DNA from: Escherichia coli
Lineage (GTDB): Bacteria > Pseudomonadota > Gammaproteobacteria > Enterobacterales > Enterobacteriaceae
Length of the DNA stretch: 64,000 bases
Strand: one strand, 5' to 3'
NCBI RefSeq assembly: GCF_003018235.1
Contig: NZ_CP027437.1
Made by a program: the position numbers and the translations under genes. Numbering within the stretch: position 1 is the first letter of the stretch; each line of letters starts with the position of its first letter. Positions 10,129 to 50,199 of this stretch are shown in pieces. The notes under the pieces were generated by a model. It saw only the letters and a program-made list of their open reading frames with translations, had not been told where the DNA came from and ran no database searches.

Positions 10129-10400
10129 AGAGTTCCCCGCGCGAGCGGGGATAAACCGGCCGTCGCCGGATCAGCCTGGCTATGCCAGCAGAGTTCCCCG
10201 CGCCAGCGGGGATAAACCGGACGAACAAAATAAAAACCAACTGAATGATGCGAGTTCCCCGCGCCAGCGGGGATAAACCGCGAACCCTTGAACCGATAAG
10301 GGCGCTGTTTTGGAGTTCCCCGCGCCAGCGGGGATAAACCGGATAGGTGTTACACATATGACCTGGCACTGGCGAGTTTCCCGCGCCAGCGGGGATAACC
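10129..10400 (+). CRISPR. Type I-E-style CRISPR array, 5 repeats and 4 spacers
   Basis: 29-nt repeat gagttccccgcgccagcggggataaaccg at 10129 (variant cgcgag), 10190, 10251, 10312, plus degenerate terminal repeat at 10373-10400; four 32-nt spacers at 10158-10189, 10219-10250, 10280-10311, 10341-10372. Confidence 0.95.
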
Positions 10401-10447
10401 ATTCAGGTATGTTCAGGCCGGGCAGTTTCCCGCCCGGCCTTCCTCAC

Positions 10448-15950: not shown

Positions 15951-17288
15951 ATGAACACTTCACCGGTGCGAATGGATGATTTACCGCTTAACCGTTTTCA
16001 CTGTCGAATTGCTGCGCTCACTTTCGGCGCGCACCTGACCGACGGTTATGTTCTCGGCGTCATTGGTTACGCCATTATTCAGCTTACGCCCGCCATGCAA
16101 CTGACGCCGTTAATGGCGGGAATGATTGGCGGCTCGGCGCTCCTTGGTTTGTTTCTTGGCAGCCTGGTTCTTGGATGGATCTCCGACCATATTGGTCGGC
16201 AAAAAATCTTCACCTTCAGCTTTTTGCTGATTACGCTCGCTTCGTTTTTACAATATTTTGCCACCACGCCAGAGCATCTTATAGGACTACGCATTTTGAT
16301 TGGCATTGGTCTGGGAGGCGATTACTCAGTAGGTCACACTTTGCTGGCTGAATTTTCTCCGCGCCGCCATCGCGGTGTTTTGCTGGGCGCGTTCAGCGTG
16401 GTGTGGACCGTAGGCTATGTGTTAGCAAGTATTGCCGGACATCACTTTATTAGCGAAAGCCCGGAGGCCTGGCGCTGGCTGCTGGCATCGGCAGCTCTGC
16501 CCGCGTTGTTGATTACGTTATTACGCTGGGGAACGCCAGAATCGCCACGCTGGCTACTGCGCCAGGGGCGTTTTGCAGAAGCTCACGCTATCGTGCATCG
16601 CTATTTTGGTCCCCATGTTTTACTGGGCGATGAAGTGGCAACGGCGACCCATAAACACATCAAAACCTTGTTCTCTTCGCGCTACTGGCGGCGCACAGCG
16701 TTTAACAGCGTCTTCTTTGTCTGCCTCGTAATCCCATGGTTTGTGATTTATACCTGGCTGCCAACTATCGCCCAGACTATTGGACTGGAAGATGCGCTGA
16801 CTGCCAGCCTGATGCTTAATGCGTTGTTAATTGTGGGCGCGCTGTTGGGATTAGTTCTGACGCACCTGCTGGCACATCGCAAATTTTTGCTGGGAAGTTT
16901 TTTGCTGCTGGCGGCAACGCTGGTCGTGATGGCCTGTTTGCCTTCCGGCAGTTCATTAACGCTGCTGCTTTTTGTTCTCTTCAGCACCACCATTTCGGCA
17001 GTCAGTAATCTGGTGGGCATTTTGCCTGCGGAAAGTTTTCCTACTGACATTCGCTCGCTGGGCGTCGGTTTTGCCACCGCCATGAGTCGACTTGGCGCGG
17101 CGGTAAGTACTGGCCTGCTGCCGTGGGTGCTGGCGCAGTGGGGAATGCAAGTCACCTTATTGCTCCTGGCGGCAGTGTTGTTGGTTGGTTTTGTTGTGAC
17201 CTGGCTATGGGCACCAGAAACCAAAGCACTCCCGCTGGTGGCGGCGGGAAATGTAGGAGGTGCGAATGAACATTCTGTTAGCGTTTAA
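15951..17288 (+). CDS. ygcS: MFS-family transporter
   Basis: ORF 15861-17288; start set at MNTSPVRMDDLPLNRF (445 aa); 12-TM-like hydrophobic profile. Confidence 0.8.
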   Translation: MNTSPVRMDDLPLNRFHCRIAALTFGAHLTDGYVLGVIGYAIIQLTPAMQLTPLMAGMIGGSALLGLFLGSLVLGWISDHIGRQKIFTFSFLLITLASFLQYFATTPEHLIGLRILIGIGLGGDYSVGHTLLAEFSPRRHRGVLLGAFSVVWTVGYVLASIAGHHFISESPEAWRWLLASAALPALLITLLRWGTPESPRWLLRQGRFAEAHAIVHRYFGPHVLLGDEVATATHKHIKTLFSSRYWRRTAFNSVFFVCLVIPWFVIYTWLPTIAQTIGLEDALTASLMLNALLIVGALLGLVLTHLLAHRKFLLGSFLLLAATLVVMACLPSGSSLTLLLFVLFSTTISAVSNLVGILPAESFPTDIRSLGVGFATAMSRLGAAVSTGLLPWVLAQWGMQVTLLLLAAVLLVGFVVTWLWAPETKALPLVAAGNVGGANEHSVSV

Positions 17289-18045
17289 AGCCGAACCGGA
17301 TGCCGGAATGCTGGCGGAAAAAGAGTGGCAGGCGGCGGCTCAGGGTAATAGCGGACCGGATGTTTCGCTACTGCGAAGTTTACTCGGTGCTGATGAACAG
17401 GCTGCCGCCGCGCTGCTGTTGGCGCAGAGAAAAAACGGTACGTCGATGTCTTTAACCGCGTTGAGCATGGGGGATGAACGGGCGTTGCACTGGCTGCGCT
17501 ATCTCATGGCTCTTGGGTTTGAGGAAGCTGTATTGCTGGAGACGGCGGCAGATCTGCGCTTTGCGCCGGAATTTGTCGCTCGCCATATTGCCGAATGGCA
17601 GCGTCAGAATCCGCTGGATCTGATAATTACCGGCTGCCAAAGCAGCGAAGGGCAGAATGGGCAAACGCCATTTTTGCTGGCGGAAATGCTGGGCTGGCCC
17701 TGCTTCACCCAGGTGGAGCGTTTCACTCTCGACGCGCCGTTTATCACCCTCGAACAGCGTACTGAACATGGGCTGCGCTGTTGCCGGGTTCGCTTGCCTG
17801 CGGTGATTGCCGTGCGTCAGTGCGGTGAAGTGGCCTTGCCAGTACCGGGAATGCGTCAGCGAATGGCGGCGGGGAAAGCAGAAATTATCCGTAAAACTGT
17901 TGCTGCCGAATCGCCAGCGATGCTGTGTCTGCAACTGGCAAGAGCAGAGCAACGACGCGGAGCGACGCTGATTGATGGGCAAACGGTAGCAGAAAAAGCG
18001 CAAAAGCTATGGCAGGACTATTTACGCCAAAGGATGCAGCCATGA
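17266..18045 (+). CDS. ygcR: Electron-transfer flavoprotein beta-subunit-like protein (FixA-like)
   Basis: ORF 17260-18045; start set at MNILLAFK; ETF-beta family; overlaps ygcQ start. Confidence 0.8.
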   Translation: MNILLAFKAEPDAGMLAEKEWQAAAQGNSGPDVSLLRSLLGADEQAAAALLLAQRKNGTSMSLTALSMGDERALHWLRYLMALGFEEAVLLETAADLRFAPEFVARHIAEWQRQNPLDLIITGCQSSEGQNGQTPFLLAEMLGWPCFTQVERFTLDAPFITLEQRTEHGLRCCRVRLPAVIAVRQCGEVALPVPGMRQRMAAGKAEIIRKTVAAESPAMLCLQLARAEQRRGATLIDGQTVAEKAQKLWQDYLRQRMQP

Positions 18046-18902
18046 ATATCGCAATTGTGACAATAAATCAGGAGAATGCCGCAATAGTGAGCTGGCTGGC
18101 AGAACAGGATTTCAGCGGTTGTACCCTGGCACACTGGCAGATTGAACCTCAGCCCGCTGTGGCGGAACAGGTACTGGATGCGCTGGTGGAACAGTGGCAG
18201 CGAACGCCTGCGGACGTTGTTATCTTTCCGCCGGGAACGTTTGGCGATGAACTGTCGACCCGGCTGGCCTGGCGTTTACATGGTGCAAGCATCTGCCAGG
18301 TGACTTCGTTAGATATTCCAACCGTAAGCGTGCGCAAATCCCACTGGGGAAATGCGCTAACGGCGACGCTGCAAACAGAAAAACGCCCGCTATGCCTTTC
18401 GCTGGCACGTCAGGCGGGAGCAGATAAAAACGCCACGTTGCCCTCTGGTATGCAGCAACTGAACATTGTCCCAGGTGCGCTTCCCGACTGGCTGGTTAGC
18501 ATAGAAAACCTGAAAAATGTTACCCGCGACCCATTAGCTGAAGCCAGACGGGTGCTGGTGGTGGGGCAGGGCGGAGAGGCAGATAACCAGGAAATCGCTA
18601 TGCTGGTAGAAAAGCTGGGAGCCGAAGTGGGCTACAGTCGGGCGCGAGTGATGAACGGTGGCGTTGATGCCGAAAAAGTGATTGGTATTTCCGGACATTT
18701 GCTGGCACCTGAGGTGTGTATTGTTGTTGGCGCTTCCGGCGCAGCAGCGTTAATGGCGGGCGTACGCAATAGCAAGTTTGTGGTGGCGATTAATCATGAC
18801 GCCAGTGCAGCGGTATTTTCACAGGCAGATGTTGGCGTGGTTGATGACTGGAAAGTGGTGCTGGAGGCACTGGTGACAAACATTCACGCAGATTGCCAAT
18901 AA
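18042..18902 (+). CDS. ygcQ: Electron-transfer flavoprotein alpha-subunit-like protein (FixB-like)
   Basis: ORF 18009-18902; start set at MNIAIVTINQ; ETF-alpha C-terminal FAD-binding region. Confidence 0.8.
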   Translation: MNIAIVTINQENAAIVSWLAEQDFSGCTLAHWQIEPQPAVAEQVLDALVEQWQRTPADVVIFPPGTFGDELSTRLAWRLHGASICQVTSLDIPTVSVRKSHWGNALTATLQTEKRPLCLSLARQAGADKNATLPSGMQQLNIVPGALPDWLVSIENLKNVTRDPLAEARRVLVVGQGGEADNQEIAMLVEKLGAEVGYSRARVMNGGVDAEKVIGISGHLLAPEVCIVVGASGAAALMAGVRNSKFVVAINHDASAAVFSQADVGVVDDWKVVLEALVTNIHADCQ

Positions 18903-26299: not shown

Positions 26300-26409
26300 G
26301 CGAGCAGCATTCCTGATTTTAAACGTGAACGCCGCTGGAAGAATCAACAGGTATAGAATGGTGTCGGGTGCTTGAGGCTGTCTGGCGTTAAGCATTCGCG
26401 AGGTTCCAG

Positions 26410-26514
26410 ATGGACAAAAGCCCCAGGCGATATTTCTATCAACCTGAGGCCAGCGTTCGAACCCAAACAATTCGAATGTTAGTCTCTTCTTTGCAGGGAG
26501 GCAAGACATGCTGA
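26410..26514 (+). CDS. mok-like leader ORF overlapping the hok-like start (34 codons)
   Basis: ATG at 26410, stop TGA at 26512-26514 overlapping the downstream ATG (acATGcTGA); translation [34 protein letters not shown]. Confidence 0.4.
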
Positions 26515-26660
26515 CAAAATATGCCCTTGTGGCAATCATAGTGCTGTGTTTTACAGTACTGGGATTCACGCTGATGGTAGGCGACTCGTTGTGTGAGTTG
26601 AGTATCAGAGAACGTGGTATGGAGTTTAAGGCAGTTCTCGCTTACGAATCGAAGAAGTAG
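26508..26660 (+). CDS. Hok/Gef-family membrane toxin (type I toxin-antitoxin), 50 aa
   Basis: [50 protein letters not shown]: single TM helix plus conserved LCEL..R.G..E..A..AYES.K tail; below the ORF-track size cutoff. Confidence 0.8.
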
Positions 26661-33104: not shown

Positions 33105-34130
33105 TTGAGTTTGATAATCTCACTTACCTCCACGGTAAACCGCAAGGCACCGGGCTGCTGAAAGCCAATCCGGAAGACTTTGTGGTGGTGGAAGATTTGG
33201 GCTTTGAGCCTGATGGTGAAGGTGAGCATATTCTGGTTAGAATCCTCAAAAACGGCTGCAATACCCGTTTTGTGGCGGATGCACTGGCGAAATTCCTGAA
33301 AATTCATTCCCGTGAAGTCAGCTTCGCTGGGCAAAAAGACAAACATGCTGTTACGGAACAGTGGTTATGCGCTCGCGTGCCGGGCAAGGAAATGCCCGAT
33401 CTGAGCGCCTTTCAACTGGAAGGCTGCCAGGTGCTGGAGTATGCGCGGCACAAGCGCAAGCTGCGTTTAGGCGCGCTGAAAGGTAACGCCTTTACCCTGG
33501 TTCTGCGCGAAGTGAGCAATCGCGATGACGTTGAACAACGTCTGATCGATATTTGCGTAAAAGGTGTACCGAACTACTTCGGTGCCCAACGTTTTGGGAT
33601 TGGCGGTAGCAACTTGCAGGGCGCGCTGCGCTGGGCGCAAACCAATACTCCGGTGCGCGATCGCAATAAACGGAGTTTTTGGTTGTCGGCAGCCCGCAGT
33701 GCGTTGTTTAATCAGATTGTTGCTGAGCGCCTCAAAAAAGCAGACGTTAATCAAGTTGTTGACGGCGATGCGCTACAATTAGCCGGACGTGGTAGCTGGT
33801 TTGTCGCAACCACCGAAGAACTGGCGGAATTACAGCGTCGCGTCAACGATAAAGAGCTGATGATAACCGCCGCATTGCCGGGCAGTGGCGAATGGGGAAC
33901 TCAGCGTGAAGCGTTGGCATTCGAACAAGCAGCTGTCGCCGCAGAAACTGAATTACAAGCCTTACTGGTGCGCGAAAAAGTTGAAGCCGCGCGCAGAGCG
34001 ATGCTGCTGTATCCGCAACAATTAAGCTGGAACTGGTGGGATGACGTCACCGTAGAAATCCGTTTCTGGCTTCCGGCGGGAAGTTTTGCAACCAGCGTTG
34101 TCAGGGAACTTATCAACACAACAGGTGATT

Positions 34131-34150
<20 letters not shown>
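33101..34150 (+). CDS. truD: tRNA pseudouridine13 synthase
   Basis: 349-aa ORF; TruD family. Confidence 0.93.
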
Positions 34151-35512
<1,362 letters not shown>

Positions 35513-35651
35513 AACGTGAGGAAATACCTGGATTTTTCCTGGTTATTTTGCCGCAGGTCAGCGTATCGTGAACATCTTTTCCAGTGTTCAGTATGGTGCC
35601 TTGCACGGTAATTATGTCACTGGTTATTAACCAATTTTTCCTGGGGGATAA

Positions 35652-36791
35652 ATGAGCGCGGGAAGCCCAAAATTCACCGTTCGCCGCATTGCGGCTTTGT
35701 CACTGGTTTCGCTATGGCTGGCAGGCTGTTCTGACACTTCAAATCCACCGGCACCGGTCAGCTCCGTTAATGGCAATGCGCCTGCAAATACCAATTCTGG
35801 TATGTTGATTACGCCGCCGCCGAAAATGGGGACGACGTCTACAGCGCAGCAACCGCAAATTCAGCCGGTACAGCAGCCACAAATTCAGGCTACTCAACAA
35901 CCGCAAATCCAGCCAGTACAGCCAGTAGCTCAGCAGCCGGTACAGATGGAAAACGGACGCATCGTCTATAACCGTCAGTATGGGAACATTCCGAAAGGCA
36001 GTTATAGCGGCAGTACCTATACCGTGAAAAAAGGCGACACACTTTTCTATATCGCCTGGATTACTGGCAACGATTTCCGTGACCTTGCTCAGCGCAACAA
36101 TATTCAGGCACCATACGCGCTGAACGTCGGTCAGACCTTACAGGTGGGGAATGCTTCCGGTACTCCAATCACTGGCGGAAATGCCATTACTCAGGCCGAC
36201 GCAGCAGAGCAAGGAGTTGTGATCAAGCCTGCACAAAATTCCACCGTTGCTGTTGCTTCGCAACCGACAATTACGTATTCTGAGTCTTCGGGTGAACAGA
36301 GTGCTAACAAAATGTTGCCGAACAACAAGCCAACTGCGACCACGGTCACAGCGCCTGTAACGGTACCAACAGCAAGCACAACCGAGCCGACTGTCAGCAG
36401 TACATCAACCAGTACGCCTATCTCCACCTGGCGCTGGCCGACTGAGGGCAAAGTGATCGAAACCTTTGGCGCTTCTGAGGGGGGCAACAAGGGGATTGAT
36501 ATCGCAGGCAGCAAAGGACAGGCAATTATCGCGACCGCAGATGGCCGCGTTGTTTATGCCGGTAACGCGCTGCGCGGCTACGGTAATCTGATTATCATCA
36601 AACATAATGATGATTACCTGAGTGCCTACGCCCATAACGACACAATGCTGGTCCGGGAACAACAAGAAGTGAAGGCGGGGCAAAAAATAGCAACCATGGG
36701 TAGCACCGGAACCAGTTCAACACGCTTGCATTTTGAAATTCGTTACAAGGGGAAATCCGTAAACCCGCTGCGTTATTTGCCGCAGCGATAA
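35652..36791 (+). CDS. nlpD: Murein hydrolase activator lipoprotein NlpD (LysM plus M23 domains); the rpoS promoter is expected inside its 3' half
   Basis: 379-aa ORF with lipobox LAGCS, Q/P-rich repeats, LysM and C-terminal M23 peptidase-like domain. Confidence 0.95.
35851..35940 (+). repeat. In-frame tandem repeats encoding QQPQIQ(P/A)V units within nlpD
   Basis: Three to four imperfect ~24-nt direct repeats (cagcaaccgcaaattcagccggta ...). Confidence 0.8.
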
Positions 36792-36853
36792 ATCGGCGGA
36801 ACCAGGCTTTTGCTTGAATGTTCCGTCAAGGGATCACGGGTAGGAGCCACCTT

Positions 36854-37846
36854 ATGAGTCAGAATACGCTGAAAGTTCATGATTTAAATGAAGATGCGGA
36901 ATTTGATGAGAACGGAGTTGAGGTTTTTGACGAAAAGGCCTTAGTAGAAGAGGAACCCAGTGATAACGATTTGGCCGAAGAGGAACTGTTATCGCAGGGA
37001 GCCACACAGCGTGTGCTGGACGCGACTCAGCTTTACCTTGGTGAGATTGGTTATTCACCACTGTTAACGGCCGAAGAAGAAGTTTATTTTGCGCGTCGCG
37101 CACTGCGTGGAGATGTTGCCTCCCGCCGCCGGATGATCGAGAGTAACTTGCGTCTGGTGGTAAAAATTGCCCGCCGTTATGGCAATCGTGGTCTGGCGTT
37201 GCTGGACCTGATCGAAGAGGGCAACCTGGGGCTGATCCGCGCGGTAGAGAAGTTTGACCCGGAACGTGGTTTCCGCTTCTCAACATACGCAACCTGGTGG
37301 ATTCGCCAGACGATCGAACGGGCGATTATGAACCAAACCCGTACTATTCGTTTGCCTATTCACATCGTAAAGGAGCTGAACGTTTACCTGCGAACCGCAC
37401 GCGAGTTGTCCCATAAACTGGACCACGAACCAAGTGCGGAAGAGATCGCAGAGCAACTGGATAAGCCAGTTGATGACGTCAGCCGTATGCTTCGTCTTAA
37501 CGAGCGCATTACCTCGGTAGACACCCCGCTGGGTGGTGATTCCGAAAAAGCGTTGCTGGACATCCTGGCCGATGAAAAAGAGAACGGTCCGGAAGATACC
37601 ACGCAAGATGACGATATGAAGCAGAGCATCGTCAAATGGCTGTTCGAGCTGAACGCCAAACAGCGTGAAGTACTGGCACGTCGATTCGGTTTGCTGGGGT
37701 ACGAAGCGGCAACACTGGAAGATGTAGGTCGTGAAATTGGCCTCACCCGTGAACGTGTTCGCCAGATTCAGGTTGAAGGCCTGCGCCGTTTGCGCGAAAT
37801 CCTGCAAACGCAGGGGCTGAATATCGAAGCGCTGTTCCGCGAGTAA
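36854..37846 (+). CDS. rpoS: RNA polymerase sigma factor RpoS (sigma-38)
   Basis: ORF 36818-37846; start set at [17 protein letters not shown] (330 aa); codon 33 is GAG (Glu) at 36950-36952. Confidence 0.97.
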
Positions 37847-37861
37847 GTAAGCATCTGTCAG

Positions 37862-37898
37862 AAAGGCCAGTCTCAAGCGAGGCTGGCCTTTTTCTTTT
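37862..37898 (+). terminator. rpoS rho-independent terminator
   Basis: aaaggccagtctc aagc gaggctggccttt stem followed by tttcttttg. Confidence 0.85.
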
Positions 37899-37965
37899 GG
37901 TTGGGGAGCCGGTGTGTTTGTGGGCTGGATAAGCCGCAATAGCGTCTCATCCGGCAATTTGCACC

Positions 37966-38373
37966 CTATGTGTTCATCATCTTGCGCACTAGCTGCATAA
38001 ACAGCTCCTGCTCTTCTCCACTCAAACGCCCCAAAAATTCCTCATCCACGCTGTCACCTATCGGTATCGCCGCAGCAAGTATCTTTTCGCCTTCGGCAGT
38101 CAGCCAGACAAAGCGTCGCCGCTTGTCAGCGGCGTCATGTTCACGTCTGACTAAGCCACGATTTTCCATTCTTGCCAACATTTCTGCCAGCGTTGCTTTG
38201 GTGCTGACGGCTGCTTCCATCAGTGCCACCTGTTCGATACCAGGTTTATCAGCAATGGCGCGCATCACCGCGTACTGTGGTTTGGTCAGATCAGGTAACT
38301 CGTGCTGCCAGCGGGCCGTGTGTTGCTGAAAAAGCTGTCGTAACTGATGGAACGCTTTATTTCGTAACGCCAT
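37966..38373 (-). CDS. MarR/SlyA-family transcriptional regulator
   Basis: 135-aa ORF with winged-helix MarR-like region; divergent from the decarboxylase operon. Confidence 0.8.
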   Translation of the reverse strand: MALRNKAFHQLRQLFQQHTARWQHELPDLTKPQYAVMRAIADKPGIEQVALMEAAVSTKATLAEMLARMENRGLVRREHDAADKRRRFVWLTAEGEKILAAAIPIGDSVDEEFLGRLSGEEQELFMQLVRKMMNT

Positions 38374-38488
38374 GTAAACTCCGGGCTAATTCTCTGTCGC
38401 TATCATAGCGGTTTTTCAGTGACGAAGAAGATGTTGTTACTTTTCAATCCTTGCCGCTGTGGAAATGAAGGAGTATGTTAATAATAAC

Positions 38489-38502
38489 GTTCGTATACGA
38501 AC
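38489..38502. promoter_or_regulatory. Candidate operator: 14-bp perfect palindrome between the regulator and decarboxylase operon
   Basis: gttcgtatacgaac is its own reverse complement; 18 bp upstream of the UbiX-like start. Confidence 0.45.
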
Positions 38503-38519
38503 AATTAAGAGAGTAAGCA

Positions 38520-39113
38520 ATGAAACTGATCGTCGGGATGACAGGGGCTACCGGTGCGCCTCTTGGTGTGGCATTACTGCAAGCGCTGCGGGAGATGCCG
38601 AATGTCGAGACTCATCTGGTGATGTCGAAGTGGGCGAAAACCACTATTAAACTGGAAACGCCTTACAGCGCTCGCGATGTTGCCGCCCTCGCAGACTTCA
38701 GCCATAACCCGGCGGATCAGGCGGCGACTATCTCTTCCGGCTCCTTTCGTACCGACGGCATGATCGTTATTCCATGCAGTATGAAAACGCTCGCCGGTAT
38801 CCGCGCTGGTTACGCCGATGGCCTGGTGGGGCGCGCGGCGGACGTCGTGCTCAAAGAAGGCCGCAAACTGGTGCTGGTGCCGCGTGAAATGCCGCTTAGC
38901 ACAATCCATCTCGAAAATATGCTCGCACTTTCGCGCATGGGCGTGGCGATGGTGCCGCCGATGCCTGCCTTTTATAACCATCCCGAAACGGTAGATGACA
39001 TTGTCCACCACGTGGTAGCCCGCGTGCTGGATCAATTTGGCCTCGAACATCCTCACGCCAGGCGCTGGCAAGGATTGCCGCAGGCCCGGAATTTTTCTCA
39101 GGAGAATGAATAA
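38520..39113 (+). CDS. ecdB: UbiX-like flavin prenyltransferase (Pad1 / decarboxylase B subunit)
   Basis: 197-aa ORF MKLIVGMTGATGAPLGVALLQAL...; symbol from memory of O157-type annotation. Confidence 0.85.
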   Translation: MKLIVGMTGATGAPLGVALLQALREMPNVETHLVMSKWAKTTIKLETPYSARDVAALADFSHNPADQAATISSGSFRTDGMIVIPCSMKTLAGIRAGYADGLVGRAADVVLKEGRKLVLVPREMPLSTIHLENMLALSRMGVAMVPPMPAFYNHPETVDDIVHHVVARVLDQFGLEHPHARRWQGLPQARNFSQENE

Positions 39114-40540
39114 TGGCATTTGATGATTTACGCAGCTTTTTACAGGCGCTTGATGACCACGGCCAGTTACTGAAAATCAGCGAAGAGGTGAACGCGGAAC
39201 CGGATCTGGCAGCCGCAGCCAACGCCACCGGGCGTATCGGCGACGGCGCGCCCGCGCTTTGGTTTGATAATATTCGCGGCTTTATCGATGCCCGCGTGGC
39301 AATGAACACCATCGGTTCCTGGCAGAACCACGCGATTTCCCTCGGCCTGCCGCCAAACACCCCGGTTAAAAAACAGATTGATGAGTTTATCCGCCGCTGG
39401 GATAACTTCCCCATTACCCCGGAGCGCCGCGCTAATCCAGCCTGGGCGCAGAACACCGTCGATGGCGACGAGATCAACCTGTTCGATATTCTGCCGCTGT
39501 TTCGTTTAAACGACGGTGATGGCGGTTTCTATCTCGATAAAGCGTGCGTGGTTTCCCGCGATCCGCTCGACCCGGATAACTTCGGCAAGCAGAACGTCGG
39601 CATCTACCGCATGGAAGTGAAGGGCAAACGTAAGCTCGGCCTGCAACCGGTGCCGATGCACGATATCGCTCTGCATCTGCATAAAGCGGAAGAACGCGGT
39701 GAAGATCTGCCGATTGCCATCACCCTGGGTAACGATCCGATCATCACCCTGATGGGCGCCACGCCGCTGAAATACGATCAGTCTGAGTACGAAATGGCGG
39801 GCGCGCTGCGCGAAAGCCCGTACCCGATCGCCACCGCCCCGCTGACCGGTTTTGATGTGCCGTGGGGCTCGGAAGTGATCCTCGAAGGGGTTATCGAAAG
39901 TCGTAAACGTGAGATTGAAGGGCCGTTCGGTGAGTTTACCGGCCACTACTCCGGCGGGCGTAACATGACCGTGGTGCGTATCGATAAAGTCTCTTACCGT
40001 ACCAAACCGATTTTCGAATCGCTCTATCTTGGTATGCCGTGGACCGAAATCGACTACCTGATGGGGCCTGCCACCTGCGTGCCGCTGTATCAGCAACTGA
40101 AAGCCGAGTTCCCGGAAGTGCAGGCGGTAAACGCCATGTACACCCACGGCCTGTTGGCGATTATCTCCACCAAAAAACGCTACGGCGGCTTTGCCCGCGC
40201 GGTGGGCCTGCGTGCAATGACCACGCCGCACGGTCTGGGCTACGTGAAGATGGTGATTATGGTCGATGAAGACGTTGATCCGTTCAACCTGCCGCAGGTG
40301 ATGTGGGCGCTCTCCTCGAAAGTGAACCCGGCAGGCGACCTGGTGCAGTTGCCAAATATGTCCGTGCTGGAACTCGACCCTGGCTCAAGCCCGGCGGGGA
40401 TCACCGACAAGCTGATTATCGACGCCACCACGCCTGTCGCCCCGGACAACCGTGGTCACTACAGCCAGCCGGTGGTGGATTTACCGGAAACCAAAGCCTG
40501 GGCTGAAAAACTGACCGCTATGCTGGCCGCACGTAAATAA
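39113..40540 (+). CDS. ecdC: UbiD-family (prFMN-dependent) aromatic acid decarboxylase, C subunit
   Basis: 475-aa ORF, UbiD family; start overlaps the UbiX-like stop; symbol from memory. Confidence 0.85.
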   Translation: MAFDDLRSFLQALDDHGQLLKISEEVNAEPDLAAAANATGRIGDGAPALWFDNIRGFIDARVAMNTIGSWQNHAISLGLPPNTPVKKQIDEFIRRWDNFPITPERRANPAWAQNTVDGDEINLFDILPLFRLNDGDGGFYLDKACVVSRDPLDPDNFGKQNVGIYRMEVKGKRKLGLQPVPMHDIALHLHKAEERGEDLPIAITLGNDPIITLMGATPLKYDQSEYEMAGALRESPYPIATAPLTGFDVPWGSEVILEGVIESRKREIEGPFGEFTGHYSGGRNMTVVRIDKVSYRTKPIFESLYLGMPWTEIDYLMGPATCVPLYQQLKAEFPEVQAVNAMYTHGLLAIISTKKRYGGFARAVGLRAMTTPHGLGYVKMVIMVDEDVDPFNLPQVMWALSSKVNPAGDLVQLPNMSVLELDPGSSPAGITDKLIIDATTPVAPDNRGHYSQPVVDLPETKAWAEKLTAMLAARK

Positions 40541-40550
40541 GGAGAACAAG

Positions 40551-40787
40551 ATGATTTGTCCACGTTGTGCCGATGAACAGATTGAAGTGATGGCGAAATC
40601 GCCGGTAAAAGATGTCTGGACGGTCTACCAGTGCCAGCATTGCCTCTATACCTGGCGCGATACCGAACCGCTACGCCGCACCAGCCGCGAACATTATCCC
40701 GAAGCGTTCCGCATGACGCAGAAAGATATTGATGACGCGCCGATGGTGCCGAGCATCCCGCCGCTGCTGGCGGAAGGTAAGCGCTAA
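40551..40787 (+). CDS. ecdD: Decarboxylase small subunit D (Cys-rich, zinc-ribbon-like)
   Basis: 78-aa ORF MICPRCADEQ...CQHC; typical third gene of bsdBCD/kpdBCD-type operons; symbol from memory. Confidence 0.75.
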   Translation: MICPRCADEQIEVMAKSPVKDVWTVYQCQHCLYTWRDTEPLRRTSREHYPEAFRMTQKDIDDAPMVPSIPPLLAEGKR

Positions 40788-40825: not shown

Positions 40826-42190
40826 TCAAATTACCGCCCATACGCACCAGGTAATTAAGAATCCGGTAAAACCGAGAATGGTCGTTAACACTGTCCAGGT
40901 TTTCAGACCGTCTGCTACCGACAACCCCAGATATTTGGTCACAATCCAGAACCCTGAGTCATTAATATGTGACGCGCCAAGCCCACCAAAGCAGGCTGCC
41001 AGCGTCACCAATACGCACTGAATCGGATTCAATCCCATCACCGCTTCTGAGAGTAACCCGCCGGTTGTCAGGATTGCTACGGTTGCTGACCCCTGCGATG
41101 CACGCAGCGCCAGTGAAATAATAAATGCGGCTGGTAACAGAGGCAGGTCAATCATTTGTAGCATGTTGGCAAGGGCTTTGCCGACGCCCGATTCCACCAG
41201 CACTTTGCCAAATACCCCTCCAGCACCAGTAACCAAAATCACTACCGCCGCAGTGGGAAGGGCTGAGCCCATAATGTCGCTGGTGTGTTGTAAGCTCCAG
41301 CCGCGACGTAAAGCCAATAACCAGAATGCCAGCACCAGCGCAATCATTAGAGCTACCATTGGTGAGCCGATCAGCTGTAGCGTACCAAGCAGGGGATGCG
41401 AAGGCGGCATCAGTGTTGCGGAAACCGTACCCGCCATGATAATCGCGATAGGAATAACAATTAGCGAGGTGACCAGCGCGACGCCCGGTGGATTTATTTT
41501 ATCGCTTAATTTTGTCGCGCCTTCCTCACTGGCCGGAGCCAGTTGCATCTGTTCCAGTACTTCCACCGACATCGCATATTGGCGCTTATTGATTATTTTC
41601 GCTGCAAAGTAGCCAACAATCCCTACTGGAATAGAAATCGCAATACCGATGATGGTTAGCCAGCCGATGTCTGCGTGGAGTAACCCCGCTGCGGCGACAG
41701 GGCCTGGATGCGGCGGTACCGCCACATGAACAGTTAGCATGATTCCAGCGACAGGCAGGCCAAATTTGAGTGGCGATATTTTGGCAACCTTGGCAAAACC
41801 GTAAATGATTGGCGCAAGAATAATAAAGCCGACATCAAAGAAGACGGGAATACCGAGGAAGAACGCTGCCAGAGTCAGCGCAGCGATAGTTCGTTTGTCA
41901 CCTAACTTGCGACTGAAATAATTAGCCAGTGACTCTGCACCACCAGAGTGTTCGATCATACGCCCCAGCATAGCACCCAGACCAATAATAATAGTGACGG
42001 AACCAAGCACACCGCCCATCCCGGCGATCATCACTTTACCCACTTCGCCCGCTGGTATACCCGCCGCAAGTGCGACTAACAGGCTGACGAGGAGCAGAGC
42101 AACGAATGGTTGTACCTTTGCCTTGATGACCAGCAGCAACAGCATGATTACGCCAGTTAACGCAATGCATAACAATGTAATTGTGGACAT
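40826..42190 (-). CDS. ygbN: GntP-family permease (putative acid-sugar transporter)
   Basis: 454-aa polytopic membrane ORF; synteny with ygbM-ygbI. Confidence 0.88.
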   Translation of the reverse strand: MSTITLLCIALTGVIMLLLLVIKAKVQPFVALLLVSLLVALAAGIPAGEVGKVMIAGMGGVLGSVTIIIGLGAMLGRMIEHSGGAESLANYFSRKLGDKRTIAALTLAAFFLGIPVFFDVGFIILAPIIYGFAKVAKISPLKFGLPVAGIMLTVHVAVPPHPGPVAAAGLLHADIGWLTIIGIAISIPVGIVGYFAAKIINKRQYAMSVEVLEQMQLAPASEEGATKLSDKINPPGVALVTSLIVIPIAIIMAGTVSATLMPPSHPLLGTLQLIGSPMVALMIALVLAFWLLALRRGWSLQHTSDIMGSALPTAAVVILVTGAGGVFGKVLVESGVGKALANMLQMIDLPLLPAAFIISLALRASQGSATVAILTTGGLLSEAVMGLNPIQCVLVTLAACFGGLGASHINDSGFWIVTKYLGLSVADGLKTWTVLTTILGFTGFLITWCVWAVI

Positions 42191-42278
42191 GGGAAACCCT
42201 GTCTGAAAGTTATAGTTAACCTACCCCATCCGTAGATGGGGGGATGTATGGGTACGTTGTAATTAGGGATTTAACGAA

Positions 42279-43055
42279 TTAGCGCCAGGCGTCAAACCAG
42301 CCAAGCCCTTCTTCGGTGAGGCCACGAGGTTTATATTCACAACCGATCCAGCCCTGATATCCCACCTCATCGAACAGGCGGAACAGCCACGGATAGTTGA
42401 TTTCTCCATCGTCCGGTTCATGTCGATCAGGTAGTCCGGCAATTTGTACGTGCGCATATTTCCCGGCGTAGTCGCGGATTAAATGCGTCAGGTTGCCATC
42501 TACTTTTTGCGCATGAAAAGTATCTAGTTGAATAAACACGTTATCTCGCGCAACTTCTTCAACAATAGCCAGTGCCTGATACTGGCTGGAGAAGAGATAA
42601 TGAGGCTTAACGCCGGGGCTGAGTGCTTCAACTAATATTCGCTTGCCGTGTGGCGCAAAGCGGTCGGCAGCGTAGCGGAGATTATCGATAAATACTGCCC
42701 TGTACCGTTCAGCATCTTCGCCAGCGGGCACGACGCCTGCCATCACATGGACTTGTTCACAATTGAGCGCCAATGCATATTCCAGTGCCAGGTCGATGTC
42801 TGCGTGTGCTTCGTGCTCACGTCCGGGAAGGGCGGATAATCCCCATTCCCCCGCATTAATATCTCCGGGAGCGGTATTGAACAGCGCCAGTGTCAGATGG
42901 TTTTGCTCCAGTTGCTTTTGGATTTGCAGGGTGGAGTAGTCATAGGGAAACAGAAATTCCACAGCATCGAACCCGGCTTTTCGCGCTGCGGCGAAGCGTT
43001 CAATAAAAGGCACTTCGGTGAACATCATGGATAAATTAGCTGCAAAACGAGGCAT
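42279..43055 (-). CDS. otnI: 2-oxo-tetronate isomerase (hydroxypyruvate isomerase family)
   Basis: 258-aa ORF; xylose-isomerase-like TIM barrel; former ygbM. Confidence 0.85.
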
Positions 43056-43059
43056 TGCA

Positions 43060-43698
43060 TTAACTCCTTAATTCCGCAATTTCACCTGCGGTCAGATAAC
43101 GGATCGGGCGATCACCGAGAATAAAAATCAGCTTTGCCGTTTCCTCCAGCTCTTCCATATTGTTGGCGGCTTCTTGCAGGCTTTCACCGCAAACCACTGG
43201 GCCATGATTTGCCAGTAAAAAAGCCTGATTGTCTGCTGCCAGTTCCGCCAGATCCTGTGCGATGCGTTTATCGCCCGGTCGGTAATAAGGCACCAGCGGG
43301 ATATTTCCCATCCGCATCACCACGTATGGTGTGAACGGACGAATAACGTTGCTGCTGTCCAGCCCTTGCAGGCAGGAAAGCGCCGTCGACCATGTGCTGT
43401 GCAAATGCACCACCGCTTTACAGCGCGGATTGTTGCGATACAGCGCCAGATGAAAGAGCACCTCTTTCGAGGGTTTGTCACCACTTAACCATTCGCCATC
43501 CGCGGCGACTTTGGAAAGCCGCTGCGGATCGAGATTGCCCAGGCATGAACCTGTCGGTGTCGCCAGTAAATTCCCGTCAGGTAAAAGCAGCGACAGATTG
43601 CCAGCCGAACCGGTTGCATAGCCGCGCTGAAAGAATGAACTGGCAATCCGCGTCATCTCCTCTCGCAAAGACTGCTCTACTTTTGCGAAATCGCTCAT
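43060..43698 (-). CDS. otnC: 3-oxo-tetronate 4-phosphate decarboxylase (class II aldolase/adducin family)
   Basis: 212-aa ORF; former ygbL. Confidence 0.85.
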
Positions 43699-44957
43699 GA
43701 TAAAAACTCTCTTTGGGCTCGTGAAAAAAAGGCGTCATCACCGAAGTTGCCAGATTTAAGGGCGAGTGAGACAGGCTTATCCAGTGCGTTTACCCACGGC
43801 ACGCCGGGGGAAATGGTTGGGCCAATATGAAACCCTTTTATTCCCAGGCTCTGTGTGACTACGCCGGAGGTCTCACCGCCTGCGACAATAAAGCGTGTTA
43901 CGCCTTCCGCGGCTAACCGCGTCGCTAGTTGAGAAAACAGTGTTTCTACTGCCTGACTGGCTTTTTGTGCACCGTATTGCTGTTGAATTGCTGCCAATGC
44001 GTCAGTGCTGGCGGTGGCAAAAACCAGTGGAGCAAGTACACTTTCCTGGCCCAGAACCCACTCTGCCAGTTCGTGTGCATAAGCGGCCAGAGTTTCAATT
44101 GAGAGGCAGCGTGCCACATCAACTTCACGGGCTGGTGCAATTTGACGGTAATGTGCTACCTGGCGGTTGGTCATTTGAGAGCATGAACCGGAGAGCACTA
44201 CGCCGCGCCCAGCGAGCGGATGCCCTGCTTTGCGAGCCTGGTTACCGTTTTCTTGCGCCCACTGCCGGGCAAGGCCAATCGCCAGACCAGAACCGCCCGT
44301 TACCAGTGGGGCATCGCGCAAGGCTTCTCCCTGAATTTCCAGATGGTGTTCGGTCAGCGCATCAAGCACCGCGTAGCGGTAGCCCTCTTGCTGTAAGCGA
44401 GCCAGCTCTTGACGAACGGCATCCACACCTTGTTCGAAAACATGTGCCGAAACGACGCCGCAGCGCCCTGTGGATTGCGCTTCAACCAGACGGGGAAGAT
44501 AGCTGTCGGTCATGGGATTTACCGGGTGATGGCGCATCCCGGATTCGGCCAGCAGTTGATTCATTACGAACAAATACCCCTGATAAACCGTACGTCCGTT
44601 GACCGGCAGGGCCGGAGAGAAGACCGTAAACGGCGTGTCGAGAGCATCCATTAATGCATCGGTAACCGGGCCGATATTACCTTTCGCCGTACTGTCGAAA
44701 GTAGAGCAGTATTTGAAATAGATCTGTTTGCAACCTTGCTGTTGCAACCAGCTCAGAGCCGCCAGCGATTGCTGTGTGGCTTCAACCACCGGACAGGAAC
44801 GCGTTTTCAGGCTGATCACCAGTGCGTCGATTGCTTCCGGCATTTTACTTGTTGGAACACCGTTAATTTGTACCGTTGGTAGACCGTTTTCCACCAGAAA
44901 ACTGGCGATATCCGTCGCGCCGGTAAAATCATCGGCGATAACGCCAATCTTGATCAT
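43695..44957 (-). CDS. otnK: 3-oxo-tetronate kinase (four-carbon acid sugar kinase family)
   Basis: 420-aa ORF starting MIKIGVIADDFTGATD; former ygbK; exact start not verified. Confidence 0.8.
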   Translation of the reverse strand: MIKIGVIADDFTGATDIASFLVENGLPTVQINGVPTSKMPEAIDALVISLKTRSCPVVEATQQSLAALSWLQQQGCKQIYFKYCSTFDSTAKGNIGPVTDALMDALDTPFTVFSPALPVNGRTVYQGYLFVMNQLLAESGMRHHPVNPMTDSYLPRLVEAQSTGRCGVVSAHVFEQGVDAVRQELARLQQEGYRYAVLDALTEHHLEIQGEALRDAPLVTGGSGLAIGLARQWAQENGNQARKAGHPLAGRGVVLSGSCSQMTNRQVAHYRQIAPAREVDVARCLSIETLAAYAHELAEWVLGQESVLAPLVFATASTDALAAIQQQYGAQKASQAVETLFSQLATRLAAEGVTRFIVAGGETSGVVTQSLGIKGFHIGPTISPGVPWVNALDKPVSLALKSGNFGDDAFFSRAQREFLS

Positions 44958-45862
44958 GATTTCGCTCCCGGTAGAGTGATGCCAGAGAAAATCTTGATAA
45001 CTGCGCTATCGTCTTCTTTCCCGTAACCCGCGTTACTGGCGCTGGTGAACATATTCAATGCTGTTGAGGCCAATGGCAGCGGGAAGTGCAGGGCTTTGGC
45101 TGTATCGGCAACCAGACCAAGATCCTTAACAAAAATATCGACGGCTGAATGCGGGGTGTAATCGCCATCCACCACATGACGCATCCGGTTTTCGAACATC
45201 CAGGAATTTCCGGCGGCATTGGTCACGACGTCATACATCACATCCAGCGGGATCCCCGCACGGGCTGCAAGTGCCATCGCTTCGGCTCCGGCAGCAATAT
45301 GTACGCCCGCTAACAACTGGTGAATAATTTTTACGGTCGAACCTAGTCCCGGTTCTGCACCTATGCGATAAACTTTTCCGGCAACGGCTTCCAGCACAGG
45401 TGCCAGTCGTTCAAAGGCAATATCGCTACCGGAGGCCATGACAGTCATTTCACCGTTAGCGGCTTTTACTGCACCACCAGAAACTGGCGCATCCAGCATT
45501 TCCAGATCGAATCCAGCCAGAGCGGTAGCAATTTCTTGCGCATCAGCACTAGCGATAGTGGAAGAAACCATTACTGCCGTACCGGGTTTCAGATGTTGTG
45601 CAACGCCTGTTTCACCAAACAGCACCTGTTTAACCTGGGCCGCATTGACCACCAGCACCAGCAGAGCGTCCAGTTTTTCGGCAAACGTCGCGGCGTTATC
45701 AGAAACCCCGCAAGCACCTGCCTCTTTCAACGTAGCGCAGGCATTGCTGTTCAGGTCTGCGCCCCAGGTAGAAAGACCTGCGCGGACACATGACAGTGCT
45801 GCTCCCATTCCCATTGACCCTAAGCCAACGATACCGACATGAAACTCAGATCCCGTTTTCAT
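44954..45862 (-). CDS. ltnD: L-threonate dehydrogenase (3-hydroxyisobutyrate dehydrogenase family)
   Basis: 302-aa ORF with N-terminal Rossmann GLGSMGMG; former ygbJ. Confidence 0.85.
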   Translation of the reverse strand: MKTGSEFHVGIVGLGSMGMGAALSCVRAGLSTWGADLNSNACATLKEAGACGVSDNAATFAEKLDALLVLVVNAAQVKQVLFGETGVAQHLKPGTAVMVSSTIASADAQEIATALAGFDLEMLDAPVSGGAVKAANGEMTVMASGSDIAFERLAPVLEAVAGKVYRIGAEPGLGSTVKIIHQLLAGVHIAAGAEAMALAARAGIPLDVMYDVVTNAAGNSWMFENRMRHVVDGDYTPHSAVDIFVKDLGLVADTAKALHFPLPLASTALNMFTSASNAGYGKEDDSAVIKIFSGITLPGAKS

Positions 45863-46027: not shown

Positions 46028-46825
46028 ATGTCAGCAGGACAAAGGAAGGAGCAAAAGTTGATACCCGTAGAGCGTCGCCAAATCATCCTTGAGATGGTAG
46101 CTGAAAAAGGCATTGTCAGTATTGCTGAACTAACGGACAGAATGAATGTGTCACATATGACCATTCGTCGGGATTTACAAAAACTGGAGCAGCAGGGAGC
46201 CGTTGTGCTGGTGTCCGGAGGCGTCCAGTCTCCGGGACGCGTGGCGCATGAACCTTCTCATCAGGTAAAAACTGCGCTGGCAATGACGCAAAAAGCGGCT
46301 ATTGGCAAGCTGGCGGCAAGTCTTGTTCAGCCGGGACGTTGTATCTATCTGGATGCGGGAACGACCACGCTAGCGATAGCACAGCATCTGATTCACATGG
46401 AGTCACTGACTGTGGTCACAAACGATTTCGTTATTGCGGACTACTTGCTCGACAACAGTAATTGCACAATTATTCACACTGGCGGTGCAGTGTGTCGGGA
46501 AAACCGTTCCTGTGTCGGGGAAGCCGCTGCGACCATGCTGCGCAGCCTGATGATTGATCAGGCTTTTATTTCTGCATCGTCATGGAGTGTGCGGGGGATT
46601 TCTACGCCAGCGGAAGATAAAGTCACGGTGAAACGGGCGATTGCCAGTGCCAGCCGCCAGCGAGTTTTGGTCTGTGATGCGACGAAATATGGTCAGGTGG
46701 CGACATGGCTGGCGTTACCATTAAGCGAGTTTGATCAGATTATTACAGACGACGGTTTGCCGGAGAGTGCCAGTCGCGCGCTGGCGAAGCAGGATCTCTC
46801 TTTGCTGGTAGCGAAAAATGAATAA
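46028..46825 (+). CDS. ygbI: DeoR-family transcriptional regulator
   Basis: 265-aa ORF with HTH (VSHMTIRRDL); an alternative TTG start 30 bp downstream would give 255 aa. Confidence 0.85.
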   Translation: MSAGQRKEQKLIPVERRQIILEMVAEKGIVSIAELTDRMNVSHMTIRRDLQKLEQQGAVVLVSGGVQSPGRVAHEPSHQVKTALAMTQKAAIGKLAASLVQPGRCIYLDAGTTTLAIAQHLIHMESLTVVTNDFVIADYLLDNSNCTIIHTGGAVCRENRSCVGEAAATMLRSLMIDQAFISASSWSVRGISTPAEDKVTVKRAIASASRQRVLVCDATKYGQVATWLALPLSEFDQIITDDGLPESASRALAKQDLSLLVAKNE

Positions 46826-46848: not shown

Positions 46849-46888
46849 CTCATGCTTCACAGAAGAAGCATGAGACTACTTTATTTTA
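46849..46888. terminator. Terminator hairpin between convergent ygbI and pphB
   Basis: ctcatgcttc acagaa gaagcatgag perfect 10-bp stem followed by ctactttatttta. Confidence 0.7.
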
Positions 46889-47532
46889 TAAAATGACAGC
46901 CGCCCGCTTTTCGGCGATCCGGTATCAATATAAATCTGGTTTGCGAACGTCTGAATGTTATCAAACATCATATGTCCAAATATAAAATAATCAGCGCCGT
47001 TTATTTGTTGTAACTCGCCATTAAGCGATTTCTGCACACGATCATCAGGCCAGAGTAATTCTCTCTCCGCTATTTCTTTGCCAAAGAGATATTCACTCCC
47101 CGGATAATCTGCATGTGCGATGACATATTTTATTATGTCGTTAGTGATTTCAATAATATGTGGAAGGCGATGAAATTTCAGCAACAGATTTATTGCTTCT
47201 TGTTGTTCCGTCTCATTTAATTCAAAGAACCAGTCGCCGCCGCTGGCAAGCCACATATTTCCATCGCCAGTTTCGAATGCCTCAAGCGCCATCGCTTCAT
47301 GGTTGCCTTTAACCGATGTAAACCAGGGCTGGTTTAACAGGCGTAGTACGTTAAGACTCTCCGGCCCACGATCAATATTATCGCCGACAGAAATAAGTAA
47401 GTCGGTTTCAGGGCAAAAAGAGAGTTGATGTAAGCGGGATTGTAATAATTGATAGTCACCATGAATATCACCAACGGCCCATATATAACGATAGTGATGG
47501 GCATTAATTTTTTGATAGCGTGTAGATGGCAT
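46876..47532 (-). CDS. pphB: Serine/threonine protein phosphatase 2
   Basis: 218-aa ORF with metallophosphatase motifs GDIHG, GDNIDRG, GNHE. Confidence 0.9.
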   Translation of the reverse strand: MPSTRYQKINAHHYRYIWAVGDIHGDYQLLQSRLHQLSFCPETDLLISVGDNIDRGPESLNVLRLLNQPWFTSVKGNHEAMALEAFETGDGNMWLASGGDWFFELNETEQQEAINLLLKFHRLPHIIEITNDIIKYVIAHADYPGSEYLFGKEIAERELLWPDDRVQKSLNGELQQINGADYFIFGHMMFDNIQTFANQIYIDTGSPKSGRLSFYKIK

Positions 47533-47637
47533 GGTTTTACCCTGTAAAATAAGATTTCCTATTATACAGGGTATTTTTATTTGATTCGTCAGTTGTCGTT
47601 AATATTCCCGATAGCAAAAGACTATCGGGAATTGTTA

Positions 47638-50199
47638 TTACACCAGACTCTTCAAGCGATAAATCCACTCCAGCGCCTGACGCGGAGTCAGTGAATCCGG
47701 GTCGAGATTTTCCAGTGCTTCGACCGCAGGCGAAGTTTCTTCTGGCACTGACAGCAAAGACATTTGCGTACCATCCACTTGCGTAGCGGCGGCGTTCGGC
47801 GAAATGCTTTCCAGCTCACGCAGTTTTTGCCGTGCGCGCTTAATAACCTCTTTTGGCACGCCCGCCAGAGCTGCAACTGCCAGGCCGTAGCTTTTGCTCG
47901 CCGCGCCATCCTGCACGCTGTGCATAAAGGCAATGGTGTCGCCGTGCTCCAGTGCATCGAGATGCACGTTAGCCACGCCTTCCATTTTCTCCGGTAACTG
48001 GGTCAGCTCGAAATAATGGGTAGCAAACAACGTCAACGCTTTAATCTTATTCGCCAGATTTTCCGCGCACGCCCACGCCAGCGACAGACCATCGTAAGTG
48101 GAAGTTCCACGCCCAATCTCATCCATCAGCACCAGACTGTACTCGGTGGCGTTATGCAGAATATTGGCGGTTTCGGTCATTTCCACCATAAAGGTTGAAC
48201 GCCCGGATGCCAGATCATCCGCTGCCCCTACGCGGGTAAAGATGCGATCGATAGGTCCAATCTCGACTTTTTGTGCCGGTACATAGCTGCCGATGTAGGC
48301 CATCAGCGCAATCAGTGCGGTCTGGCGCATATAGGTACTTTTACCGCCCATATTCGGACCGGTAATGATCAACATGCGACGTTGCGGCGACAGGTTCAGC
48401 GGGTTGGCGATAAACGGCTCATTCAGCACCTGTTCAACCACCGGATGGCGGCCTTCGGTGATGCGAATACCCGGTTTATCAATAAAGGTCGGGCAGGTGT
48501 AGTTCAGCGTATAGGCCCGTTCTGCCAGGTTCACCAGCACGTCGAGTTCCGCCAGCGCGCTCGCGCTCTGTTGCAACGCTTCCAGATGCGGCAACAGCAG
48601 GTCGAACAACTCTTCATAAAGCTGTTTTTCCAGTGCCAGTGCTTTGCCTTTTGAAGTGAGAACTTTGTCTTCGTACTCTTTTAGCTCTGGAATAATGTAG
48701 CGCTCGGCGTTTTTCAGCGTCTGGCGACGCATGTAATTGATGGGTGCCAGATGGCTTTGTCCACGGCTGATCTGAATGTAATAACCATGAACCGCGTTAA
48801 AGCCGACTTTCAGCGTGTCCAGGCCAGTACGTTCACGCTCGCGGACTTCCAGACGCTCCAGATAATCGGTCGCGCCGTCAGCCAGCGCGCGCCACTCATC
48901 CAGCTCTTCGTTATAGCCCGGTGCGATAACACCACCGTCGCGTACCAGCACTGGCGGTGTGTCGATGATTGCTCGCTCCAGCAGATCGCGCAGCTCGGCA
49001 AACTCGCCCATTTTTTCACGCAGCGCCTGTACCGGAGCGCTATCGACATTTTCTAATAGCGCACGCAGCTCCGGCAGTTGCTGGAAAGCGTGACGCATAC
49101 GGGCCAGATCGCGTGGGCGAGCAGTTCGTAAAGCCAGACGCGCCAGAATACGTTCCAGGTCGCCGACCTGACGCAGTACCGGCTGCAGCTCGGCGGTGAA
49201 ATCCTGCAATGCGCCAATAGTTTGCTGGCGCTCAAGCAAGACGCGGGTATCGCGCACTGGCATATGCAGCCAGCGTTTCAGCATACGGCTGCCCATCGGC
49301 GTGACGGTGCAGTCGAGCACAGAAGCCAGCGTATTTTCCGCACCACCCGCCAGGTTCTGGGTGATTTCCAGATTACGACGCGTCGCGGCATCCATAATGA
49401 TGCTGTCCTGCTCACGTTCCATGGTGATGGAACGAATATGCGGCAGAGTCGTACGTTGGGTATCTTTCGCATACTGCAACAGACAACCGGCAGCACAAAG
49501 TCCGCGCGGCGCGTTCTCGACGCCAAAACCGACCAGATCGCGGGTGCCAAATTGCAGATTCAACTGCTGGCGCGCGGTGTCGATTTCAAACTCCCACAGC
49601 GGGCGACGGCGCAGGCCGCGACGGCCTTCAATTAACGACATTTCAGCAAAATCTTCTGCATACAGCAGTTCCGCCGGATTAGTGCGTTGCAGTTCTGCCG
49701 CCATCGTTTCCCGGTCAGCCGGTTCGCTCAGGCGAAAACGACCGGAACTGATATCCAGCGTCGCGTAGCCGAAACCTTTGCTGTCCTGCCAGATAGCCGC
49801 CAGCAGGTTATCCTGACGCTCCTGCAACAGCGCTTCATCGCTGATGGTGCCCGGCGTAACGATACGCACAACTTTGCGCTCAACCGGACCTTTGCTGGTC
49901 GCTGGATCGCCAATTTGTTCGCAGATGGCAACGGACTCGCCCTGATTCACCAGTTTGGCGAGGTAGTTTTCCACCGCATGGTAGGGGATCCCCGCCATCG
50001 GGATCGGCTCTCCCGCCGAAGCACCGCGTTTGGTCAGTGAAATATCCAGCAGTTGCGACGCGCGTTTTGCGTCGTCATAAAACAGTTCATAAAAATCACC
50101 CATCCGGTAAAACAGCAGGATCTCGGGATGCTGGGCTTTCAGCTTGAGATATTGCTGCATCATGGGCGTATGGGCATCGAAATTTTCTATTGCACTCAT
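47638..50199 (-). CDS. mutS: DNA mismatch repair protein MutS
   Basis: 853-aa ORF; Walker [10 protein letters not shown]. Confidence 0.98.

Follow-up and report, generated by a model that had tools for sequence, protein, structure and literature searches.

An intact rpoS gene with the common Glu33 codon in a non-K-12 Escherichia coli

As the sigma factor of stationary phase and general stress, sigma-S guides RNA polymerase to the promoters of these conditions and is regulated through its transcription, its translation (Hfq and small RNAs) and its proteolysis (RssB/ClpXP). A stretch of 64,000 nucleotides of E. coli DNA (hereafter the window) contains its gene, rpoS, with a glutamate codon at position 33. 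This raises the question of which kind of rpoS allele the strain carries, what codon 33 and the neighbouring rpoS-mutS interval tell about its lineage, and how far an intact gene speaks for a functional general stress response. That codon 33 is polymorphic, that Glu33 is wild type and that the rpoS-mutS interval is mosaic has been on record since about 2000-2004, and a wild-type rpoS with Glu33 is already known and ordinary. We put the probability that the feature is just this, the ordinary wild-type rpoS allele of a natural non-K-12 E. coli encoding sigma-S, at about 95%. The gene itself comprises the following elements:

36854..37846, + strand: rpoS coding sequence, 330 aa, intact, with ATG at 36854-36856 and TAA at 37844-37846
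36950..36952, + strand: rpoS codon 33, the wild-type GAG (Glu)
37860..37893, + strand: intrinsic terminator-like hairpin with 15 pairs and then a T-run, 14 nt past the rpoS stop

The preliminary description of this DNA had claimed an intact rpoS at 36854-37846, and its coordinates proved exact: between the ATG at 36854 and the TAA at 37844-37846 the rpoS frame runs through 330 sense codons without a stop. The mechanical list of open reading frames (ORFs) gave a frame 12 codons longer, beginning at an in-frame ATG at 36818. The start at 36854 is supported by the annotation of identical DNA, by the Shine-Dalgarno sequence and by a match to the RpoS equivalog model over its full length. That match (NCBIfam NF004207) reached 604.6 bits with a cut-off of 394 and placed residues 1-329 on profile positions 1-329, and TIGR02394 scored 480.7 bits against a cut-off of 378.7. 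The RpoS protein stayed below the respective cut-offs of both the RpoD and the RpoH models. Sigma-70 regions 1.2, 2, 3 and 4 (Pfam PF00140, PF04542, PF04539 and PF04545) were found on the identical 330-aa proteins of three relatives (L006, L010 and L011), and solved E. coli sigma-S chains align from end to end, with chain 6kj6_F differing solely at residue 33 (E here, Q there). The genomic context is the canonical pcm-nlpD-rpoS order with the leader inside nlpD. Three antisense ORFs within rpoS (- strand; 36852-37292, 37280-37957 and 37384-37746) are called in no annotated genome and were rejected as by-products of GC-rich coding sequence.

A match to rpoS was present in 5,414 of 5,426 complete E. 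coli genomes. Its 993 nt are 100% identical in 17 of these, where the gene is annotated as rpoS with product WP_000081550.1, and 99.9% identical to E2348/69 and many more complete genomes. The protein is identical to the wild-type RpoS with Glu33 of natural and pathogenic isolates (WP_000081550.1), as is the nlpD-rpoS order, and the strains vary in their silent-site haplotype only. Compared with rpoS of K-12 MG1655 (b2741, Gln33 encoded by CAG; locus L002), 982 of the 993 nt are identical, and length, position, Shine-Dalgarno sequence and proximal leader are alike. The 11 differences fall at gene positions 97, 163, 264, 270, 357, 462, 504, 549, 564, 573 and 819. Only the one at position 97 (CAG to GAG, Q33E) changes the protein; the other ten are synonymous. 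Alignment with reference alleles thus upheld the statement that the allele carries no inactivating change, Q33E being the sole amino-acid difference from MG1655. A natural nonsense allele was seen in a relative whose rpoS-mutS interval is arranged alike (L018, GCA_002968075.1, positions 17113-18105), in which rpoS codon 3 is changed from CAG to TAG and the gene caller gives a shortened product of 325 aa; the window is without such a null change.

Whether the gene is also expressed normally depends in part on the sequence in front of it, where the following features lie:

35652..36791, + strand: nlpD (379 aa), upstream of rpoS, from the ORF and RefSeq annotation of homologous loci
36253..36281, + strand: putative intragenic rpoS promoter, TTGCTT at 36253-36258, a 17-nt spacer and TATTCT at 36276-36281
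36287..36853, + strand: rpoS 5' untranslated leader of 567 nt, its length taken from PMC10948607
36842..36846, + strand: Shine-Dalgarno sequence AGGAG, 7 nt before the ATG and identical to K-12

The main promoter of rpoS and the greater part of its leader lie within nlpD, and a tblastn alignment of NlpD with the K-12 protein contained zero amino-acid mismatches. The main start site of rpoS lies 567 nt before the start codon, with its promoter inside nlpD (PMC10948607). Position -567 corresponds to 36287 in the window, and from the hexamers 5-6 nt upstream of it we infer that TTGCTT and TATTCT form the rpoS promoter. A sigma-70 consensus scan of 36100-38000 returned no promoter-like site, but the putative -35 element has three of six consensus matches in both the window and K-12, which is under the threshold of the scanner, and the scan is silent on function. 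Within this element, position 36257 is T in the window and G in K-12 and TUM14771 (TTGCGT to TTGCTT), a change that is synonymous in nlpD. The T occurs in 325 of the 5,426 genomes (about 6%), including IAI39, SMS-3-5 and CE10, which we take to be phylogroup F strains. Neither G nor T fits the -35 consensus at this position, and we treat the T as a benign natural polymorphism. There is a slim chance that the G-to-T change measurably alters rpoS transcription and in this way adds to the known strain-to-strain variation in sigma-S level.

Six positions in the 704 nt upstream of the rpoS ATG set the window apart from MG1655, and every one of them falls within nlpD. Three of these are in the leader, at 36560, 36671 and 36692. 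The last 161 nt before the ATG, together with the Shine-Dalgarno sequence, are identical to K-12, and this part of the leader includes the region with which small RNAs pair. The long leader is known to fold such that the ribosome-binding site is blocked, and small RNAs open this fold (PMC10948607). In a predicted RNA fold of the proximal leader, upstream leader sequence pairs with the start codon and with the nucleotides immediately 5' of the Shine-Dalgarno sequence, at a z-score of -1.75 versus shuffled sequences, which is not significant, and the fold was given no weight beyond the identity to K-12. Rfam at gathering thresholds over the whole window gave nothing in or beside rpoS; its sole match was sok at 26366-26523.

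Given the identity with K-12 and established knowledge of the gene, rpoS is transcribed mainly from the promoter within nlpD with a leader of 567 nt. This leader folds over the ribosome-binding site until Hfq-dependent small RNAs open the fold, and the product is a full-length sigma factor of 330 aa, sigma-S. The reading frame is intact, the encoded protein is the common wild-type RpoS and the proximal expression signals are intact. Judged by the sequence identity to functional alleles, it is plausible that sigma-S reaches a normal level in this strain and drives a stress response of normal strength. Outside the window lie the regulators by which the amount and the activity of sigma-S are set (RssB, Hfq, DsrA/RprA/ArcZ, Crl and the Ira proteins). 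An intact rpoS is necessary but not sufficient for a functional general stress response, because sigma-S levels depend on factors outside the window and are reported to be strain-specific in E. coli (PMC3074542).

A rival reading is that rpoS is intact while the general stress response is attenuated through lineage-specific rpoS expression or sigma-S stability. Possible sources of such an attenuation are the -35 polymorphism at 36257, the leader polymorphisms at 36560, 36671 and 36692, or regulators encoded at other sites of the chromosome or genome at large. The six differences from MG1655 before the ATG, one of them in the putative -35 element, and the strain-specific sigma-S concentrations reported across E. 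coli (PMC3074542) would agree with it. However, the -35 polymorphism swaps one non-consensus base for another and is common to 325 natural genomes, the leader nearest to the start codon is identical to K-12, and no disruptive change was seen in the sequence. We consider an attenuated response unlikely and prefer the reading of an ordinary wild-type allele, against which nothing in the sequence speaks.

Glutamate at codon 33 (GAG, 36950-36952), which had been reported together with the view that this codon is a polymorphic site of laboratory E. coli lineages (amber or Gln in some K-12 derivatives), was confirmed by the sequence and its translation; residues 32, 33 and 34 of RpoS are all Glu (E32-E33-E34). 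To see how common this state is, we took a census of the 5,426 complete E. coli genomes with 55-mers that carry the first base of the codon at position 28, where each 28-nt megablast seed must contain that base. Codon 33 is GAG in 5,058 genomes, from natural isolates of many kinds (about 93% of the genomes with rpoS). It is CAG in 228 genomes, and the 40 of these that were listed are all MG1655 or its laboratory or evolved derivatives. The remaining 128 genomes have TAG, and the matches listed are mostly K-12 derivatives (W3110, J53, AG100, HMS174 and S17-1) and also include BLR(DE3). The three counts sum to 5,414, exactly the number of genomes with rpoS.

The census agrees with the literature. 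K-12 strains have TAG at codon 33 in some cases and Glu, Tyr or Gln in others, TAT being among the codons (PMC2700278; PMC1852560). GAG is the usual codon in natural non-K-12 isolates and was found in every VTEC strain tested (PMC2700278), as in every isolate of PMC1852560. BLR(DE3) is a B strain in which about 85 kb around recA derive from K-12 by transduction, and this DNA brought in an rpoS with the nonsense mutation at codon 33 (PMC5454202). The allele of the W3110 type, rpoS(Am33), which is found in W3110, J53, BLR(DE3) and others, is hit at the same codon, but there a TAG stop at codon 33 lowers sigma-S activity (PMC5454202), whereas in the window this codon is a sense codon and the frame is full-length. 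Glu33 is the ancestral state and the majority state of the species, and Gln33 and amber33 are peculiar to K-12 laboratory stocks. The GAG at 36950-36952 is neither of the two codons, CAG or TAG, that mark the K-12 laboratory alleles.

It follows from the presence of GAG in 5,058 of 5,414 genomes that Glu33 alone excludes only the K-12 laboratory alleles. That Glu33 is an informative lineage marker for the source strain is thus highly doubtful: it does rule out the MG1655-type (CAG) and W3110-type (TAG) alleles, but a codon shared by 93% of the genomes with rpoS does not tell natural lineages apart, and the silent-site haplotype and the neighbouring island are more informative on lineage.

Lastly, the preliminary description had named a sequencing error at codon 33 as something that could refute its claim, and that the GAG is an artefact of sequencing or assembly hiding a true CAG or TAG seems very unlikely, to the point of being negligible, because two independent assemblies are identical at rpoS: an SRA-derived one (L017, Logan SRR18885539) is 100% identical over window positions 33695-54957 (21,263 bp), rpoS included, and an NCBI draft (L022, GCA_038099465.1) has 2 mismatches in 12.2 kb (99.98%) with an identical rpoS, while among 16 other loci with an rpoS alignment that covers codon 33, 15 also have GAG, the exception being K-12 MG1655 with CAG, and the source strain is clearly not K-12 given its 11 rpoS differences and its different rpoS-mutS interval.

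What remains for the question of lineage is the interval between rpoS and mutS, where the window contains:

37966..38373, - strand: MarR-family ('slyA-like') regulator, first gene of an approximately 2.9-kb rpoS-proximal segment, from the ORF, the L003 annotation and Pfam MarR on relatives
38520-39113, + strand: non-oxidative hydroxyarylic acid decarboxylase subunit B (kpdBCD/ecdBCD)
39113-40540, + strand: non-oxidative hydroxyarylic acid decarboxylase subunit C (kpdBCD/ecdBCD)
40551-40787, + strand: non-oxidative hydroxyarylic acid decarboxylase subunit D (kpdBCD/ecdBCD)
40826-45862, - strand: ygbN (o454), ygbM, otnC/ygbL, otnK/ygbK and ltnD/ygbJ, from ORFs and the L003 and K-12 annotation
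46058-46825, + strand: ygbI, from ORFs and the L003 and K-12 annotation
46876..47532, - strand: pphB (protein phosphatase 2), from the ORF and the L003 annotation
47638..50199, - strand: mutS, the far boundary of the variable interval; the exact protein is widespread

K-12 lacks the segment with the MarR-family gene and the decarboxylase genes BCD, and ygbN directly follows rpoS there. IAI39 has the MarR and BCD segment but not ygbI-N, and one further locus (L001) shows another variant of the interval, with a TPR gene. The arrangement in the window matches 'pattern IV' of the o454-nlpD or mutS-rpoS region (Ewers et al. 2014; PMC4209514), in which ygbN (o454) is present and kpdD, kpdC, kpdB and the slyA-like gene lie between ygbN and rpoS; it differs from pattern II of K-12 and pattern III of B2 (PMC4209514). 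In the strain collection of that study, patterns I, II and IV were spread among non-B2 groups, while pattern III was almost exclusive to B2 (PMC4209514). The suggestion that the content of the interval carries lineage information was borne out to this extent: the signal is real, with a pattern that is neither that of K-12 nor that of B2, but it is coarse, since pattern IV is spread over several non-B2 groups. The Clermont markers used for phylogrouping lie outside the window.

The allele of the segment is rarer than the segment itself. The approximately 2.9 kb with the MarR-family and BCD genes occur in 2,417 of the 5,426 complete genomes, but no more than 26 of these reach an identity of 99% with the window, and the identity is about 95-96% in a spread sample of the carriers. 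Among the carriers of this segment, the window therefore has a minority allele. In the near-identical sister L022 (GCA_038099465.1, positions 1-833), the place that ygbI has in the window, directly in front of ltnD/ygbJ, is taken by an IS110-family transposase gene, where the alignment with the window ends. The IS110-family gene at the ygbI site indicates that the interval is still rearranging within the lineage.

The wider sequence points to a lineage that has rarely been sequenced. Each of the 5,426 complete RefSeq E. coli genomes differs from the window by 0.8-2.6%. Over 30-52 kb, the best match to a complete genome is 99.2% (TUM14771 and a few others), and over 7.9-30 kb it is 97.4-98.0%. 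Near-identical sequence was found, through exact-protein look-ups, solely in three draft or SRA assemblies (L013, L017 and L022), of which L013 (GCA_012768955.1) is 99.977% identical over 11923-33722. The divergence from TUM14771 is uneven: near rpoS and the genes of the decarboxylase there are 1-5 differences per kb, in mutS 15-27 per kb. Measured against the best complete genome, the mosaic contrast is sharpest between 47000-50000 (mutS; 1.5-2.7%) and 34000-40000 (around rpoS; about 0.1-0.5%). This unevenness fits the known mosaic nature of the mutS-rpoS region and suggests that recombination has taken place there in a rarely sequenced lineage.

Outside the rpoS region, three further observations were made in the window. 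Firstly, between cysH and iap, the sok antisense RNA (Rfam RF01794, 111 bits; 26366-26523) lies with an ORF for a 50-aa Hok/Gef toxin (26508-26660). No cas genes follow the sok/Hok pair at 26366-26660, and none was found anywhere in the 64-kb window. At exactly the sok/Hok site, three close relatives (TUM14771, L003; L012; L015) have an array and a complete type I-E cas3-cas2 operon, so the lineage of the window lacks the cas operon. Secondly, a small orphan CRISPR array at 10129-10406, beside queE/ygcE, consists of four spacers and five type I-E-like repeats that recur every 61 nt, the final repeat being degenerate; the spacer at 10281-10310 had no exact match in GTDB species-representative genomes. 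Thirdly, ygcE (10447-11925, - strand), which encodes an FGGY-family carbohydrate kinase of 492 aa in relatives, has a frameshift after codon 354, due to a 1-bp deletion near 10864/10865 relative to L004, which makes ygcE a pseudogene unless the deletion is an assembly error.

The source of the window is a natural E. coli and not a K-12 laboratory derivative, and the gene of its master stress regulator is undamaged. Because stored and laboratory strains frequently have mutations in rpoS, an intact gene is worth recording for annotation and quality purposes.
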